64,000 nucleotides of DNA from Oscillospiraceae bacterium. Its GTDB lineage: Bacteria; Bacillota; Clostridia; Oscillospirales; SIG627. Location: positions 80,140 to 144,139 of the forward strand of contig SVRV01000002.1 of the NCBI GenBank assembly GCA_015064635.1, given 5' to 3'. This document shows, in pieces, positions 1,512 through 58,273 of the stretch. How positions within the stretch are numbered: position 1 is the first letter of the stretch; each line of letters starts with the position of its first letter. The position numbers were made by a program, and so were the translations under genes. The notes under the pieces are model-generated. The model saw only the letters and a list, made by a program, of their open reading frames with translations. It was not told the DNA's origin and searched no databases.

Positions 1512-1640
1512 ATGGCTTGCTACAACAACACATGCAACACATGTAACTCATGCGGTTCAAACAACGGCATTCTCGGCAACGACCTTTGGATTTGGATCGT
1601 AATAATCGCATTAGTAGTCATTCTCTTCGGAATAGGCTAA
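1512..1640 (+). CDS. 42-aa Cys/Asn-rich tiny membrane peptide (YjcZ-like / tiny_TM style)
   Basis: Too short for the ORF track. GAAGGAGGG lies 7 nt before the ATG. Product is MACYNNTCNTCNSCGSNNGILGNDLWIWIVIIALVVILFGIG: four Cys in the N-terminal half, then one hydrophobic helix. A strong hairpin follows. A CATACTATA element (mother-cell sigma -10 style) lies ~35 nt upstream. Confidence 0.45.
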   Translation: MACYNNTCNTCNSCGSNNGILGNDLWIWIVIIALVVILFGIG

Positions 1641-53874: not shown

Positions 53875-54963
53875 ATGGCAATAATTACAGTAATTTGTTC
53901 GGGAATGATGGGAACTGCCATTACTTTCCCGGCAGCACAAAACGGCCATACCATTCGTTTGGTTGGCTCTCCGTTGGACAATGATATAATTGAACACGGT
54001 CAAAAGACAAAGGAGCATCTCAATCTGTCAAAGTACAGAAAGAACAATCCCACAAGCGGAGTTGATGCACCGGTACTAACTTCCGATAATGTTACCTTCC
54101 ACTATTTTGAAGAAATGGAGGAATGTATCAAAGGGGCTGACCTAATTATTTGCGGTGTATCATCCTTTGGTATTGACTGGTTCTGCAACAATGTAATTCC
54201 AAAGCTTCCGGCAGAAATTCCCCTCTTGTCAATTTCAAAGGGCATGGTAGACGACGGAGAAAATAAAGGTCGTCTCATATCCTATCCCGAGTATATGCAA
54301 CGATTCACAGATAAGGATTTAAAAATCTACGCAGTCGGAGGCCCCTGCACATCATATGAGCTTGTAGACCGTGACCCCACAGAGGTTACCTTCTGCGGAC
54401 CCGATATGAATACACTTCGTTGGTTGCGTGGGATATTTGAGACCGACTATTACCATATAAGCCTTTCGACGGATGTAAGAGGTGTAGAATGTACCGTTGC
54501 ATTAAAGAATGCTTATGCTCTTGGTGTCGCTCTTGCTGTCGGCATGTCTTATAAAAGAGAAGGTAGAGAGTTTGAGCATTACAATTCTCAGGCGGGCTTG
54601 TTTACTCAAGCATCAAAGGAAATGTATCAGCTGTTAGATGTTTTCGGCGGTACTGCAGAGCGCAATATTTTCCTTGGTATAGGAGACCTTTACGTTACGA
54701 TTTTCGGTGGAAGAAACAGAAGGCTTGGTACTTTACTCGGTCAGGGCTACACCTATGACGAGGCAATAAGTCAATTGGGCGGAGTAACTCTCGAAGGTAT
54801 AGTTATAACAGAGAGAACCGCAAAGGCGGTTAAGCAGCTTGCCGAGCTTGGAGAAATCAACATTAAAGATTACCCGTTGCTTATGCATATAAATGAACTG
54901 TTGTTTGAAAACAAGAGAATCAATGTACCGTGGAAGGCATTTGAGACAGAGTATCAAGGATAA
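53875..54963 (+). CDS. NAD(P)-dependent glycerol-3-phosphate dehydrogenase family protein (GpsA-like, divergent)
   Basis: Rossmann start MAIITVICSGMMGTA and a SISKGM segment, with the GpsA C-domain layout. Start moved to the ATG at 53875. Confidence 0.6.
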   Translation: MAIITVICSGMMGTAITFPAAQNGHTIRLVGSPLDNDIIEHGQKTKEHLNLSKYRKNNPTSGVDAPVLTSDNVTFHYFEEMEECIKGADLIICGVSSFGIDWFCNNVIPKLPAEIPLLSISKGMVDDGENKGRLISYPEYMQRFTDKDLKIYAVGGPCTSYELVDRDPTEVTFCGPDMNTLRWLRGIFETDYYHISLSTDVRGVECTVALKNAYALGVALAVGMSYKREGREFEHYNSQAGLFTQASKEMYQLLDVFGGTAERNIFLGIGDLYVTIFGGRNRRLGTLLGQGYTYDEAISQLGGVTLEGIVITERTAKAVKQLAELGEINIKDYPLLMHINELLFENKRINVPWKAFETEYQG

Positions 54964-54978
54964 AGGCTTAAACATAAC

Positions 54979-55012
54979 AAAACCGACAAGTATTTAATCT
55001 TGTCGGTTTTTT
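54979..55012 (+). terminator. intrinsic terminator after the GpsA-like gene
   Basis: AAAACCGACAAG / CTTGTCGGTTTT 12-bp stem followed by a T-run. Confidence 0.75.
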
Positions 55013-55140
55013 GAATATAATGACCCTTAACATTTTTATTATAACATGTTTTTTATCCAATGTAAAGAAAAAACATATGCTGAAATAAAATTTCTCTTTG
55101 GTGCACAAAAAACGAGTTAAATGTTTTGCATTTTTGTCAA

Positions 55141-55169
55141 TTGAAAAAAGTGCAAAAAGATGCTATACT
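55141..55169 (+). promoter_or_regulatory. near-consensus sigma-A promoter with no protein gene behind it
   Basis: TTGAAA, 17 nt, TATACT, with a TGc extended -10. Confidence 0.6.
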
Positions 55170-55175
55170 ATAAAC

Positions 55176-55408
55176 GAAGAAAGGAAGGTACACTCCAATG
55201 AACAAATAAACCTTCAAAAGTGACGACGGCGAAAACACGGCGGTGTAACGCAGAAGATATATAAATATAACAAGGAGAAAATATAATTCCCGTCATCGTC
55301 ACAAACAATTCAAATAGTAGAAAGAGAGGAAACCTTAGATGCTCGATATCAAGACAGAACAGAAATAACCCTCAACAGCGAATGTTGTTGAGGGTTATTT
55401 CTTTTGAG
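55176..55408 (+). ncRNA. candidate ~230-nt small RNA or orphan leader (unclassified)
   Basis: Bounded by the promoter above and a 15-bp-stem terminator. It has a long-range helix: GUGACGACGG (55220-55229) with CCGUCAUCGUCAC (55289-55302). It also holds two SD-preceded micro-ORFs: MNK at 55198-55209 and MLDIKTEQK at 55339-55368. Confidence 0.4.
55363..55408 (+). terminator. strong unidirectional intrinsic terminator
   Basis: AAATAACCCTCAACA (55363-55377) pairs with TGTTGAGGGTTATTT (55386-55400), followed by CTTTTG. There is no U-run in the minus orientation. Confidence 0.8.
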
Positions 55409-55723
55409 TGTGACTTAATAACAGTGTTATTCCTTGTTAAAGTTCAAATTTAGTTTATGGTTCAAGCCCCTCTGTCCGATCCTTTTCTTACTTTTTGCAA
55501 AAAAAGGACACCGGCATTTTGGTCATTTTCGAGTATAAAAAGAGTGTCATAGTATCTTTTTCAAGCAGCTCCGAATCTGATTCTTGTATGTTTTTCCTTT
55601 CTCAGACACAAAGCTAAAAACAGTCCTCAGGACTGTTTTCTTCACGCTTTGTCCCCTCCCAGGGTTCAAGTCCCTTCCATTTATAACAAAAAGAAAAGAG
55701 TACCTCTGGTACTCTTTTCTTTT

Positions 55724-55745
55724 TGGTGCGAGAGACGGGACTTGA
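55724..55745 (-). pseudogene. orphan copy of the last 22 nt of tRNA-Leu(GAG), from the T-loop to CCA
   Basis: TCAAGTCCCGTCTCTCGCACCA (minus strand) is identical to 55906-55927. The upstream sequence is unrelated to the tRNA body. Confidence 0.85.
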
Positions 55746-55842
55746 CGCAAATCTTTGATTTGCTCTTTCTTCGGGCATAGCCCTCAGACACAAAGCTAAA
55801 AACAGTCCTCAGGACTGTTTTCTTCACGCTTTGTCCCCTCCC
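55746..55842. repeat. conserved hairpin-rich module, copy 1 (the right-hand 60 nt also occur at 55601-55660)
   Basis: Three hairpins: GCAAATC-ttt-GATTTGC; GGGC-ata-GCCC; and ACAAAGC...GCTTTGT enclosing ACAGTCC-tca-GGACTGT. About 90% identical to 56168-56263. Confidence 0.8.
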
Positions 55843-55868
55843 AGGGTTCAAGTCCCTTCCATTTATAA

Positions 55869-55905
55869 CAAAAAGAAAAGAGTACCTTTGGTACTCTTTT
55901 CTTTT
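55869..55905 (-). terminator. intrinsic terminator directly after tRNA-Leu(GAG) (a copy lies at 55687-55723)
   Basis: AAAAGAGTACC aaa GGTACTCTTTT, followed by CTTTTT. It is flanked by runs on both sides, so it could act bidirectionally. Confidence 0.75.
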
Positions 55906-55988
55906 TGGTGCGAGAGACGGGACTTGAACCCGTACGGATAACCACACGCCCCTCAAACGTGCGCGTCTGCCAATTTCGCCACTCTCGC
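55906..55988 (-). tRNA. tRNA-Leu (anticodon GAG), CCA encoded
   Basis: Manual cloverleaf. Acceptor GCGAGAG/CUCUCGC. D-arm GCG-AAAUUGGCAGA-CGC. Anticodon arm CACGU-UUGAGGG-GCGUG. Long variable arm. T-arm ACGGG-UUCAAGU-CCCGU. Ends ACCA. Confidence 0.9.
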
Positions 55989-56013
55989 ATAGGTCTCTCA
56001 ACTGACCTTTTAT

Positions 56014-56041
56014 ATTATACACATTTTTTTGTAAATGTCAA
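56014..56041 (-). promoter_or_regulatory. sigma-A promoter for tRNA-Leu(GAG)
   Basis: Minus strand: TTGACA, 16 nt, TATAAT, about 25 nt before the tRNA 5' end. Confidence 0.7.
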
Positions 56042-56145
56042 TACCTTTTGAAGAAAAAGTTTAAATTAGTTTTTATGAGGTTCAAGTCCTTCATTTTATC
56101 ATATCAAAAATATAGAGAGTACCTTTTGGGTACTCTCTATATTTT

Positions 56146-56167
56146 TGGTGCGGATAGCAGGACTTGA
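56146..56167 (-). pseudogene. orphan copy of the last 22 nt of tRNA-Leu(CAG)
   Basis: TCAAGTCCTGCTATCCGCACCA (minus strand) is identical to 56333-56354. Confidence 0.85.
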
Positions 56168-56263
56168 CGCAAATCAAGATTTGCTATCTCCTCGGGCATA
56201 GCCCTCGGACACAAAGCTAAAAACAGTCCACAGGACTGTTTTCTTCACGCTTTGTCCCTCCTT
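56168..56263. repeat. conserved hairpin-rich module, copy 2
   Basis: Same three-hairpin layout as 55746-55842. The differences are confined to hairpin loops and linkers. Confidence 0.8.
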
Positions 56264-56332
56264 GAGGTTCAAGTCCTCTCTTTTATCATATCAAAAATAT
56301 AGAGAGTACCTTTTGGGCACTCTCTATATTTT

Positions 56333-56419
56333 TGGTGCGGATAGCAGGACTTGAACCTGTACCGAATCACTCCGACTAGAACCTGAATCTAGCGCGTCTG
56401 CCAATTCCGCCATATCCGC
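56333..56419 (-). tRNA. tRNA-Leu (anticodon CAG), CCA encoded
   Basis: Manual cloverleaf. Acceptor GCGGAUA/UAUCCGC. D-arm GCG-GAAUUGGCAGA-CGC. Anticodon arm CUAGA-UUCAGGU-UCUAG. Long variable arm. T-loop UUCAAGU. Confidence 0.9.
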
Positions 56420-56432
56420 ATACAACAGATGT

Positions 56433-56461
56433 ATTATATCAAAACAAAGCGCGTTTGTCAA
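56433..56461 (-). promoter_or_regulatory. consensus sigma-A promoter for tRNA-Leu(CAG)
   Basis: Minus strand: TTGACA, 17 nt, TATAAT. Confidence 0.75.
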
Positions 56462-56481
56462 GTGAAAACGCTAAAATAAAT

Positions 56482-56517
56482 CAAAAGACAGACACCCCGT
56501 CATATAGCGGGGTGTCT
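56482..56517 (-). terminator. intrinsic terminator of the hydrogenase operon
   Basis: AGACACCCCG (56490-56499) pairs with CGGGGTGTCT (56508-56517), followed on the minus strand by a U-rich tract. Confidence 0.7.
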
Positions 56518-56536
56518 TGAGCTTTTATGCTAATGA

Positions 56537-58273
56537 TTACATTTTCTTTCTCGGAACGTATGTTGTATGAAGGTCATGGTGAGCCTTGTGACCGCCGAAT
56601 CCGTCGTAATACTCTTCATAGAGCTTCTTAACAACGGGAGACTCATGTGACTTTCTGATAGCCATTGCTGCATCCTGATCGTAGAGCGCCTTAGCACGTA
56701 CCGCCTTAAGGTCAACTGTATCACGAACAGACTGAGGCTGAATAGGCTGACCGCCGCCGTTTACACAACCGCCGGGACATCCCATGATTTCAACGAATGT
56801 CCAATCAGAGTTACCGCTTGCGATTCTGTCCATAACTACCTTAGCAGCAGCTGCACCACTTGCAACAGCAACCTTGATATCAAGACCTGCTATATTGAGA
56901 GATGCTTCCTTGAGACCGTCTGTACCACGAACTGCAGTAAAGTCGATTTCTGTGTTATCCTTACCTGTGAGCCAGTCATTAGCTGTACGGAGAGCTGCCT
57001 CCATAACACCGCCTGTTGCACCAAAGATAACAGCAGCACCTGTATCTTCACCAAGAGGAGAATCGAATTCTTCATCGGGAAGAGATGTGAACTTGAGTCC
57101 GGCACGTTCAATCATTCTGCCGAGTTCTCTTGTTGTGATTGCGATATCAACATCGGGAACACCTGCAGCGCTCTGGTCATCTCTGCCTATCTCGAACTTC
57201 TTAGCTGTACAAGGCATAACTGATACTGATACGATATCCTTGGGGTCTATACCCATCTTTTCAGCATAATATGTCTTGATAACCGCACCTGCCATCTGTT
57301 GAGGAGACTTACAAGATGAAAGGTGAGCGAGGAATTCGGGATAATAGTATTCAGCAAACTTAACCCATCCGGGGGAGCATGAAGTAATCATGGGGAGAAC
57401 TCCGCCATTCTTTACTCTGTCGATAAGCTCGTTTGCTTCTTCAACGATTGTAAGGTCAGCTGCAAAGTCTGTGTCGAATACCTTGTCAAAGCCAAGTCTT
57501 CTGAGAGCTGCAACCATCTTACCTTCTACATTTGTACCGATAGGCATACCGAAGCACTCACCGAGAGTTGCACGAACTGAAGGAGCAGTCTGAACAACTA
57601 CGTGCTTTGTGGGATCAGCAATAGCTGCCCAAACCTTATCTGTATCATCCTTTTCTGTAAGAGCACCGGTGGGACATACCGCTGTACACTGACCGCATGA
57701 AATACATGAAGTAGCGTTGAGCTTTACATTGAAGGGATTACCGATATTTGTATCGATACCTCTGTCGTTAGCACCGATGATAGATACATACTGCTGGTCA
57801 CAAACAGCAACACAGCGACGGCAAAGGATACACTTGTTGTTATCACGAACAAGGTGGGGAGCAGACTCATCAAGCTCATACTCACGCTTGTAACCGCCAA
57901 ATGCATTTTCATCAACTCCGTACTCACGGCAGAGCTTCTGGAGTTCACAGTTTGTTGAACGCTTACAAGACAGACACTTCTTATCATGTGTTGAAAGAAT
58001 AAGTTCGAGAGTGGTCTTACGAGCCTTCTGAATTTTTTCGGTATTTGTCTGTATTTCCATGCCTTCGGCTACAGGATATACACAAGCGGTAACAAGACCT
58101 CTTGCACCTGTTGCCTCAACAACACATATACGGCAAGCACCTATTTCGTTAATATCCTTCATGAAGCAAAGGGTGGGGATTTCTACACCTGCAACACGTG
58201 CTGCTTCAAGAATTGTTGATCCCTTGGGCACGCTGACAGCAATGCCATTTACTTTACAATTAATCATTTCCAT
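56537..58273 (-). CDS. hydA: [FeFe]-hydrogenase catalytic subunit, M3 architecture (HydA of multimeric NAD(P)H-linked enzymes)
   Basis: N-terminal 2Fe-2S, a His-ligated 4Fe-4S, and two ferredoxin-type clusters. H-cluster motifs are TSCSPGW, MPCTAKKFE and EIMGCPGGCVNGGGQP. Confidence 0.9.
   Translation of the reverse strand: MEMINCKVNGIAVSVPKGSTILEAARVAGVEIPTLCFMKDINEIGACRICVVEATGARGLVTACVYPVAEGMEIQTNTEKIQKARKTTLELILSTHDKKCLSCKRSTNCELQKLCREYGVDENAFGGYKREYELDESAPHLVRDNNKCILCRRCVAVCDQQYVSIIGANDRGIDTNIGNPFNVKLNATSCISCGQCTAVCPTGALTEKDDTDKVWAAIADPTKHVVVQTAPSVRATLGECFGMPIGTNVEGKMVAALRRLGFDKVFDTDFAADLTIVEEANELIDRVKNGGVLPMITSCSPGWVKFAEYYYPEFLAHLSSCKSPQQMAGAVIKTYYAEKMGIDPKDIVSVSVMPCTAKKFEIGRDDQSAAGVPDVDIAITTRELGRMIERAGLKFTSLPDEEFDSPLGEDTGAAVIFGATGGVMEAALRTANDWLTGKDNTEIDFTAVRGTDGLKEASLNIAGLDIKVAVASGAAAAKVVMDRIASGNSDWTFVEIMGCPGGCVNGGGQPIQPQSVRDTVDLKAVRAKALYDQDAAMAIRKSHESPVVKKLYEEYYDGFGGHKAHHDLHTTYVPRKKM

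Follow-up and report, generated by a model that had tools for sequence, protein, structure and literature searches.

A structured repeat unit behind tRNA-Leu(CAG) of an Oscillospiraceae bacterium, probably a small RNA or a mobile element riding on tRNA genes, belongs to a widespread family whose design resembles the Escherichia coli RttR repeat

What kind of genetic unit carries, directly behind a tRNA gene, both a direct and an inverted copy of parts of that gene's own 3' end? The question is raised by tRNA-Leu(CAG) in the 64,000-nucleotide stretch of Oscillospiraceae DNA analysed here (the window). The original prediction held that the architecture of tRNA-Leu(GAG) recurs at this second tRNA-Leu gene, 345 bp away, with a 187-bp period, and this was confirmed on the minus strand, where a 92-nt direct repeat (56076-56167 and 56263-56354) is 96% identical at 187-bp spacing. 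All parts of the proposed order were found: the promoter and tRNA-Leu(CAG) are followed by a terminator, a box, a module of ∼97 nt, a 22-nt copy of the tRNA 3' end, a second terminator and a second box, giving 1.5 repeat units (Table 1). The promoter ascribed to this gene is indeed a consensus one (12/12, TTGACA-17-TATAAT), and the flank described as the tRNA's own 3' end matches its source, the last 22 nt of tRNA-Leu(CAG) (56333-56354), at 22/22 positions. The 187-bp unit contains no ORF, the repeated GGACTTGAACC box sits inside the direct repeat and the repeat stops at ...CCTCA, with unique sequence beyond. The architecture is real and far beyond chance; the number of 21-mer chance matches was zero in 100 shuffles, and the presence of an identical CAG locus on two independent JGI metagenome contigs excludes an assembly artefact.

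Table 1. Features of the two tRNA-Leu loci, in window coordinates.
Feature	Position	Strand	Basis or remark
tRNA-Leu(GAG)	55906..55988	-	ARAGORN, Rfam; 345 bp from tRNA-Leu(CAG)
Promoter of tRNA-Leu(GAG)	56014-56041	-	Promoter scan
GAG array, 1.8 units of 182 bp, 99% identity	55601..55927	-	Direct repeat
GAG P2 copies	55783-55837, 55601-55655	-	Covariance-model matches
Promoter of tRNA-Leu(CAG), sigma-70-type, TTGACA-17 nt-TG-TATAAT	56433..56461	-	12/12 consensus
tRNA-Leu(CAG), CCA encoded	56333..56419	-	ARAGORN; Rfam tRNA 49.8 bits
Terminator 1: A-run, 17-19 bp hairpin, T-run	56293..56333	-	Inverted repeat
Box 1, AGGACTTGAACCT	56265..56277	-	13-nt exact complement of T-arm; fold
Module, ∼97 nt	56168..56263	-	Sequence; begins 57 nt past tRNA-Leu(CAG)
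P1a mini-hairpin CCTC-AAG-GAGG, box 3' end and core start	56257..56267	-	Minimum-energy fold
P2 core hairpin	56211..56255	-	Covariance-model match, 71.1 bits; outer-stem covariation
P3 hairpin TCCGA-GGGC-TAT-GCCC-GAGGA	56189..56209	-	Fold, alignment
P4 hairpin GCAAATC-TT-GATTTGC	56169..56184	-	Alignment; three pairs changed on both sides
22-nt direct copy of tRNA 3' end, TCAAGTCCTGCTATCCGCACCA	56146..56167	-	22/22 identity, fold
Terminator 2, 98% identical to terminator 1	56106..56146	-	Inverted repeat; 51/52 over terminator and spacer
Box 2, terminal, no module behind	56078..56090	-	Sequence

Box 1 is the reverse complement of the tRNA-Leu(CAG) T-arm at positions -25 to -13 from the 3' end, AGGACTTGAACCT complementing AGGTTCAAGTCCT, and box and T-arm lie mirror-symmetrically about the loop of terminator 1 with an offset of 1.5 nt. 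Terminator 1 is, by its sequence, a bidirectional terminator. The 22-nt copy spans T-loop position 55 to CCA. In the minimum-energy fold the box and the opening 9 nt of the downstream copy form a 9-bp closing helix, P1, to which the box contributes the 5' strand; the other nucleotides of the copy, CTGCTATCCGCACCA, among them the acceptor 3' strand and ACCA, remain as a free single-stranded tail. Either Leu unit thus folds into a closed, branched structure with helices P1, P1a, P2, P3 and P4 (z-scores for folding, -4.9 and -5.7). A comparably good fold is available to the opposite strand, as would be expected of palindromic DNA in general. At the CAG locus P2 consists of an outer stem (ACAAAGC/GCTTTGT), an internal loop (GTGAAG/TA) and a terminator-like inner hairpin, AAAACAGTCC-TGT-GGACTGTTTT, followed by a T-rich stretch. 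P3 is also seen in the Treponema and rpsI-linked copies described below. The P4 hairpins of relatives are compensated stems (GCAGGC/GCCTGC, CAGAC/GTCTG and CAGTC/GACTG), and two of the four pairs of P1a are compensatory in a seven-sequence alignment. A 7-mer that precedes P4 (GAGATAG at CAG, GAAAGAG at GAG) is a candidate mimic of the acceptor 5' strand, since in some loci it could pair with the acceptor 3' strand; its counterpart at a tRNA-Arg(CCG), GAGTGAG, has no complementarity to that strand.

The search pattern used for related loci fixed the P2 inner hairpin sequence, so that invariance of this inner stem is uninformative; variant inner stems do occur, at two loci (L115 and L053). The outer stem is another matter. 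Among 60 diverse P2 sequences its five variable pairs use all four Watson-Crick types, with 150 double-change cells compared with 45.7 in shuffles (0/500 shuffles reached the observed value), and the covariation score drops from 0.294 to no more than 0.094 when the 3' partners are shifted by one to three columns. Non-Watson-Crick pairs in P2 are distributed unevenly between the strands (66 G.A/A.G versus three C.T/T.C, and ten G.U versus three A.C), and tandem GA/GA recurs in 17/60 sequences. In seven small-variant units 13 of 44 predicted pairs are compensatory, including pairs in P4 and P1, and the changes in P1 track the local tRNA. Stem covariation combined with strand-biased non-Watson-Crick pairs points to a single-stranded form, probably the module-sense strand and probably RNA. 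All three copies of P2 in the window also qualify as plain intrinsic terminators (an 11-bp stem followed by TTTTT on the minus strand), to which a conserved GTTAAG/TA internal loop and the covarying outer stem add more than a generic terminator possesses.

The neighbouring GAG array holds two 22-nt tRNA-end copies, two terminators, two boxes and one full module, its second module being truncated directly after P2, and its box, GGGACTTGAACCC, complements its own T-arm, GGGTTCAAGTCCC. A covariance model of the central hairpin found only three copies in the 64-kb window, all at the two tRNA-Leu loci. The original prediction proposed that the two loci have different terminators and share only the module, and asked whether identity within a locus exceeds identity between loci. 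It does so here: within the CAG locus the arm is identical at 22/22 positions and terminator plus spacer at 51/52, compared with 83% for the arm and 71% for the terminator between CAG and GAG, where the core is 89% identical. The terminators proved less different than proposed: between the loci they retain a common GAGTACC/GGTACTC stem and their 71% identity lies above the median for unrelated pairs (53%). Both loci also end alike, in a box followed by ATAAA(A)ACTAA(A)TTT(A/G)AAC. From these comparisons the CAG and GAG loci look like paralogues of a single ancestral tRNA-plus-module unit, and the near-identity of the 92-nt flanks and the 1.8-unit GAG array are attributable to a recent event, either tandem duplication or conversion from one direct repeat to another. 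One of the origins originally suggested, an ancient duplication whose copies are kept homogeneous, fits these two Leu loci, with their terminators at 71%, cores at 89%, similar end motif and 98% flank identity.

The design is not confined to this genome. An exact scan with the repeated 22-mer of tRNA-Leu(GAG) found the same design in nine species, and a separate degenerate pattern for the P2 inner hairpin matched at least 120 genome loci, mostly in Oscillospirales metagenome-assembled genomes and additionally in Treponema, as well as nine viral contigs. Among the matches listed, the family spans more than 100 gut-bacterial genomes. Again among the matches listed, 145 core instances were classified by context: 53 lie at most 140 nt downstream of a tRNA on the same strand, 16 further along arrays, 13 are of the Treponema type, seven are linked to rpsI, 11 are too near a contig or locus end to classify and 45 have another or an unclassified context. 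The hosts of the 53 tRNA-adjacent copies among these matches represent at least 27 anticodons and at least 15 amino acids, and the search for the module beside other tRNA genes, as originally suggested, was successful across genomes (27 anticodons); in the 64-kb window it accompanies the two Leu genes only. The unit comprises an inverted T-arm copy, a folded core (P1a/P2/P3/P4), a direct copy of the tRNA 3' end to CCA and an intrinsic terminator. The recognition of the box as an inverted T-arm copy, the cross-genome family and the parallel with RttR discussed below go beyond the original prediction.

The arms follow the host gene. In 48 tRNA-adjacent copies the box contains a median 13-nt exact complement of the local tRNA, compared with 7 nt for other tRNAs, and the 3' copy a median 18-nt exact match to the local tRNA end, compared with 6 nt for other tRNAs and a control maximum of 12; the copy usually begins in the T-loop (position 55) and ends at the tRNA end. 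A box is present at 48/54 tRNAs with a core and a copy at 46/54, compared with 6/41 and 8/41, respectively, at tRNAs without one, these few mostly having variant cores. Because the flanks are locus-specific in every case, a simple mobile element with one fixed att sequence does not fit, as had been argued from the two Leu loci and now extends to all 48 copies. Across 45 loci box and T-arm are placed as mirror images around the loop of terminator 1, with a median offset of +1 nt (at most 2 nt in 28/45). This geometry fits either an origin by fold-back copying or pairing of T-arm and box in read-through transcripts. A simple fold-back origin of the box was considered and rejected: the spacing fits, but the spacer facing the acceptor strand is not complementary to it in most loci.

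What is preserved at the far end of the unit is the tRNA tail itself. At 37 loci the last 14 nt of the copy show a median identity of 100% to the tRNA, whereas the 45 nt past the copy show a median of only 58% to the sequence flanking the tRNA itself (unrelated pairs have a median of 53% and a 95th percentile of 64%), and in many loci identity ends exactly at CCA. A terminator-like hairpin with a T-run nevertheless follows the copy in 31/37 loci. In orthologues of tRNA-Leu(GAG), which retain both module and fragment, the terminators are 73-85% identical and the copy is still 22/22. The fragments thus do not drift freely from their tRNA while neighbouring sequence diverges, and since the copy stays intact as the flank decays it appears to be maintained by selection or by directed conversion. 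The idea that the arrangement is selected, offered originally as one of three options, gains support from the conservation of the arms, the covariation and the boundary exactly at CCA. The remaining option, an insertion that duplicates ∼90 bp of target, is not supported as a rule: the second terminator is unrelated to the first in 19/37 loci. The length of target that is duplicated varies, from 14 nt up to more than 90 nt. Because the copy is ∼100% identical up to CCA and the flank beyond is usually unrelated, the ∼90-bp duplication seen here reflects a recent local duplication or conversion and is not general. One locus, L003, appears to have been converted relative to L007 and L008.

Database searches gave no ready identity for the module. 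In Rfam release 15 only tRNA passes at or near the gathering score, and RtT is absent from the matches with E-values up to 10 over positions 54500-57000; the same holds at the gathering score for 15 related loci. Sub-threshold matches to Gut-1 at locus L027 lie outside the module, in a separate downstream array of GTGATAT hairpins, and this identity was rejected. Phage (50,697) and plasmid (72,556) records contain no match to the large-variant module. When 1,556 ORFs from 137 loci were clustered, no transposase, reverse transcriptase, HUH nuclease or RAYT recurred near the copies; the clusters represent generic families, rplM/rpsI and, in a few loci, incidental integrases. An integrase link was also rejected: some cores have integrase genes 200-300 nt upstream, but where these were inspected they proved to be part of a prophage whose junction falls in the tRNA-Met anticodon loop, the module simply lying downstream of the displaced tRNA-Met half, and the same prophage reading applies to the rpsI locus L126. 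Resemblance to Cas9 tracrRNA, a k-turn or attC was considered and set aside on strand order and loop sequences, and a literature search by sequence motif returned nothing relevant.

The closest parallel in design is found in E. coli. Since the late 1970s the repeat known as rtT, which follows the tyrosine tRNA genes of this species, has stood as an isolated curiosity with, to our knowledge, no agreed function. In E. coli K-12 three 178-bp repeats follow tyrV, each ending in a 19-nt tRNA-Tyr tail, including CCA, that recurs every 178 nt, and each holding an inverted 10-nt copy of the tail, GGGGAAGGAT. The T-arm copy is split by an insert of ∼76 nt (AAGGTTCGA, insert, AATCCTTCC... (AATCC...)), and the unit folds into a closed shape with a free ...CCA tail. 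The rttR gene begins 7 nt after tyrV, and the annotated 3' end of RttR (locus position 1167) is the CCA of the first tRNA-tail copy. The gene lies in one repeat unit of the tyrT operon (PMC3318445); in the wording of that article, where it cites Bosl and Kersten (1991), RttR is processed from the tyrT transcript, and RttR has been linked to tyrT transcript processing and possibly to the stringent response (bioRxiv 10.1101/2024.07.17.603846).

Both systems lie directly downstream of a tRNA on the same strand, are organized in tandem units of comparable length (178 bp, three copies, in E. coli; 187 bp, 1.5 copies, at CAG) and end each unit with an exact copy of the last 19-22 nt of the tRNA, including CCA; in both, base pairing between the direct tail copy and an inverted partial one closes a branched fold from which a ...CCA tail protrudes. 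Insertion of the core between positions 54 and 55 of the direct T-arm copy is clear in E. coli and suggestive here, where a P1a partner (GGGT-type, 4 bp) is present in 12/33 loci versus ∼5% in controls. The differences are nonetheless considerable. There is no sequence or covariance-model similarity between the E. coli repeat and the Clostridia module, and the E. coli unit lacks an intrinsic terminator between tRNA and repeat, lacks a P2-type hairpin and is annotated with a small ORF (tpr). One operon is known in E. coli, compared with at least 27 tRNA species and more than 100 genomes for the present family. Because Rfam RtT is unmatched, the parallel is one of design and not of membership. 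The CAG unit is a member of a widespread structured family at tRNA 3' ends that appears to be built like RttR, and it is best regarded as a much broader variant of that obscure type of repeat.

Other known systems resemble the unit less closely. Small RNAs derived from trailers of stable-RNA operons, among them 3' external transcribed spacers (such as the tRNA 3'ETS sponge RNAs of E. coli) and the dual-terminator RNAs of rrn operons (rrA/rrB/rrF), carry no copies of the upstream gene's 3' end; the CAG unit would join this class through its presumed read-through. Integrase att duplications likewise flank an insert with direct repeats of a tRNA 3' end, often from the T-loop, and may form tandem arrays, but CAG-type units have no genes and no integrase link, add an inverted T-arm copy and present one insert at many tRNAs; of the hallmarks of tRNA-integrating elements, the flanking direct repeats of the tRNA 3' end are present and an encoded or adjacent integrase is absent. 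REPINs and MITEs are similarly short, non-coding, strongly folded, multi-copy and placed just 3' of genes, and the Treponema copies sit in REP-like hairpins. The ends of the present family, however, are copied from each host gene and are not conserved between copies, the family is almost confined to the tails of tRNA and ribosomal-protein genes, and the conserved terminal inverted repeats with a fixed short target duplication that define a MITE or REPIN were not found.

The unit is probably a small RNA, or a mobile element, riding on tRNA genes. We tentatively place first the possibility that the CAG unit encodes an RttR-like small RNA that would originate in the tRNA transcript and mature as a tRNA does. 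RNA polymerase starting from the very strong tRNA promoter might sometimes pass terminator 1, and the downstream RNA would then fold and halt at terminator 2. The enzymes that finish tRNA 3' ends could trim it to CCA, mirroring the annotated 3' end of RttR, and such a tRNA-like end may confer defined ends and stability. Alternatively, the anti-T-arm box might pair with the upstream T-arm in read-through precursors, as is suggested by the mirror symmetry of the box about terminator 1. For the core, a function linked to stress or to the supply of tRNA, of the type proposed for RttR, would be a guess by analogy.

Several observations tell against a small RNA. The spacer that separates terminator 1 from the module is only about 10 nt long and contains no promoter; terminator 1 is strong (a 17-bp stem and a T-run), so that read-through may be rare; and the terminator-like P2 could halt transcription before the 3' copy is reached. 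Cores in the opposite orientation and in non-tRNA contexts also occur. The rpsI-linked core lies between convergent genes; its 5' arm is the antisense of the final ∼19 nt of rpsI, its 3' segment is sense-like and the core itself is flipped relative to the host gene. Another core is flipped at a tRNA-Lys (L037), so that both orientations of the core are represented between inverted and direct arms. In Treponema the core occupies the loop of a REP-like hairpin that also exists nearby without it. The P2 found between rpsM and rpsK of Sphingomonas panni stands alone, and its outer stem, GTAAGGC/GCCTTAC, takes in the stop codon. All of these arrangements are more readily reconciled with a mobile element than with an RNA that is purely a tRNA trailer.

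A mobile origin is the main rival, although we consider it somewhat unlikely. The unit would be a non-autonomous hairpin element that makes its arms from the target and brings no gain to the cell: a small, very stable core (P2 with or without add-ons) would land beside or within hairpins (T-arms, terminators, REP-like palindromes) that end highly transcribed genes, fold-back or template-switch synthesis (palindrome extension) would yield first the inverted and then the direct tail copy, and arrays would expand by unequal crossing-over. Such an element would explain the core's occurrence beside at least 27 tRNA species as well as at rpsI, Treponema and Sphingomonas sites, the copied gene-end arms at the rpsI end, the empty Treponema hairpin, the stop codon within the Sphingomonas outer stem and the freedom of orientation; the mirror symmetry, within 4 nt in 40/45 loci, is what fold-back copying predicts, and the variants are nested and modular and include deletion derivatives. 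It is harder to reconcile with arms that differ at each locus, without conserved terminal inverted repeats or a short target-site duplication, and with the lack of a recurrent transposase, reverse transcriptase or HUH nuclease at the 137 loci and of any match in the phage and plasmid collections. A filled-versus-empty allele pair was not found; the exact-junction scan of metagenome contigs gave no copy-number alleles. Moreover, the acceptor and CCA portion of the copy, which does not pair with the box, still keeps 100% identity while flanks decay, and correction within a palindrome is therefore insufficient on its own. The small-RNA and mobile-element readings could both hold at once.

A more far-reaching version, which we regard as a long shot, sees in the core a new target-templated mobile or regulatory unit that gains antisense and sense copies of the host RNA 3' end, its arms being acquired by fold-back, by template-switch or by copying from the tRNA itself. 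If so, there would be one anti-T-arm RNA per tRNA gene, pairing with its own precursor and switchable by a decoy, and E. coli rtT would be the first-seen member of a cross-phylum class.

Decidedly improbable as a general account is a neutral local tandem duplication, produced by slippage or unequal exchange and then gene-converted, with the core as a mere spacer. The flank identity of 96-99% at both loci in the window, with their 1.5 and 1.8 units, and the converted appearance of L003 relative to L007 and L008 are what it would lead one to expect, and the breaks of three metagenome contigs at the tRNA end are of the sort that a repeat or a polymorphic site would cause. It does not explain the inverted T-arm copy, the conservation of the core, with compensatory changes, over many species and types of tRNA or an intact tail copy between terminators that are unrelated in 19/37 loci, and none of 106 metagenome sites sharing the 22-nt tRNA-Leu(CAG) end has a second copy or core. 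The neutral account is largely refuted, surviving only for the high flank identity in this genome.

The least probable origin is a relic or miniature of a tRNA-integrating element, in which the tail repeats are attL and attR formed by tyrosine-integrase crossover in the T-loop, the module is a remnant or a tiny satellite moved in trans and the arrays are tandem integrations: the copy does run from T-loop position 55 to the tRNA end like att identity blocks, terminator 1 often shows no relation to terminator 2, as though an element had brought it in, and integrases in these genomes do target the 3' ends of tRNA genes and of rpsI (L126, L134), but the 187-bp unit is too small for genes, the nearby integrases belong to separate prophages whose crossover lies in the tRNA-Met anticodon loop upstream of the module, one core would need a separate integrase for each of 27 tRNA targets, neither the inverted T-arm copy nor the mirror symmetry is an att feature and nothing similar occurs in the phage and plasmid records.

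The tail repeats have practical consequences, in that they break metagenome contigs at tRNA genes, and island finders that rely on tRNA-fragment repeats could misread such units as the att sites of genomic islands. With the RttR-like small RNA as the tentatively preferred reading, the family raises questions about a CCA-ending trailer RNA, about contact between an anti-T-arm and the tRNA precursor and about the making of target-matched arms. The anatomy of the Clostridia units, their presence at no fewer than 27 tRNA species, the covariation and the conservation of the arms turn the one-off rtT repeat into a class that may be compared across species.

The array of tRNA-Leu(GAG), whose last unit is incomplete, stops directly after the outer stem of P2, the conserved core hairpin of the module. 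The terminal partial units of two loci from other genomes (L008 and L022) retain the box, the reverse complement of the local T-arm, together with the 5' strand of P2, but in both a different terminator hairpin has been swapped in for the P2 inner hairpin. This replacement hints that the P2 inner hairpin itself acts as a terminator.

Beyond the GAG array lies a fourth box-like motif that lacks a module. This motif and its 3' sequence are similar to the end of the tRNA-Leu(CAG) locus (GGACTTGAACCTCATAAAAACTAATTTAAAC), a resemblance that suggests tandem paralogy of the two Leu loci. When read on the plus strand, the same motif looks like a tRNA 3' fragment (GGTTCAAGCCCCTCTGTCCGATCC). Three independent metagenome assemblies yielded contigs that bear the hydrogenase gene of the window (L140–L142); all stop either exactly at the CCA of tRNA-Leu(CAG) or 3 nt past it, as repeated or strain-variable sequence behind the tRNA would produce.

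Features of the core, the module and related repeats
Feature	Locus	Position	Strand	Description
Fourth box-like motif	window	55442-55469	minus	GGGCTTGAACC then ATAAACTAAATTTGAAC; without module
Terminal partial unit of GAG array	window	55601-55676	minus	box and complete P2 retained
P2 hairpin between rpsM and rpsK	L038, Sphingomonas panni DSM 15761	1553-1595		
End of prophage-like contig	L134	13740-14030		integrase gene, tRNA-Met 3' half, full unit
tyrV repeat region	L263, E. coli K-12	1286700-1287330		classic 178-bp repeat unit

Arrays of other kinds that are built on tRNA tails occur at tRNA-Leu(GAG) loci of other Clostridia. One (L004) comprises at least five units of 97 nt, each with a terminator, a short hairpin and a 3' copy and without a box, while the other (L006) has a single variant module followed by a series of 18–22-nt tRNA-tail copies with short hairpins between them. 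Downstream of the module in a further locus (L027, 3219-3388), two matches to Rfam Gut-1 scored 44.6 and 30 bits, below the gathering score of 50; they correspond to a series of small hairpins with GTGATAT between neighbours, and this array appears to be a feature separate from the module. The tyrV repeat unit of E. coli holds a 10-nt inverted copy of the tRNA-Tyr tail, and its T-arm copy is interrupted in the T-loop by an insert of ∼76 nt; no description of either was found in those parts of the literature that were consulted.

The core is also found in other settings. At three Treponema loci (L013, L017 and L023) a REP-like hairpin, GATGCTGAA...TTCAGCAT, holds the core and the next hairpin of the module, P3, within its loop, and an empty copy of the same hairpin lies some dozens of bases from the filled one. 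The low-GC P2 hairpin of S. panni, an isolate genome of high GC, is near-identical to Clostridial P2, and its outer stem (GTAAGGC/GCCTTAC) overlaps the stop codon of rpsM.

On the prophage-like contig, the tRNA-Met 3' half, which comes after the integrase gene, begins in the anticodon loop and is followed by a terminator, box, core and 15-nt copy of the tRNA-Met tail; the viral-contig boundary takes in host flank. At six further loci (L015, L035, L039, L102, L126 and L128) the core adjoins, in opposite orientation, the 3' end of rpsI, which encodes ribosomal protein S9, and the final ∼19 nt of that gene are duplicated at the 5' edge of the core. Since a tyrosine integrase gene adjoins an rpsI 3' fragment in L126, the rpsI end, judged by this gene arrangement, also serves as an integration site.
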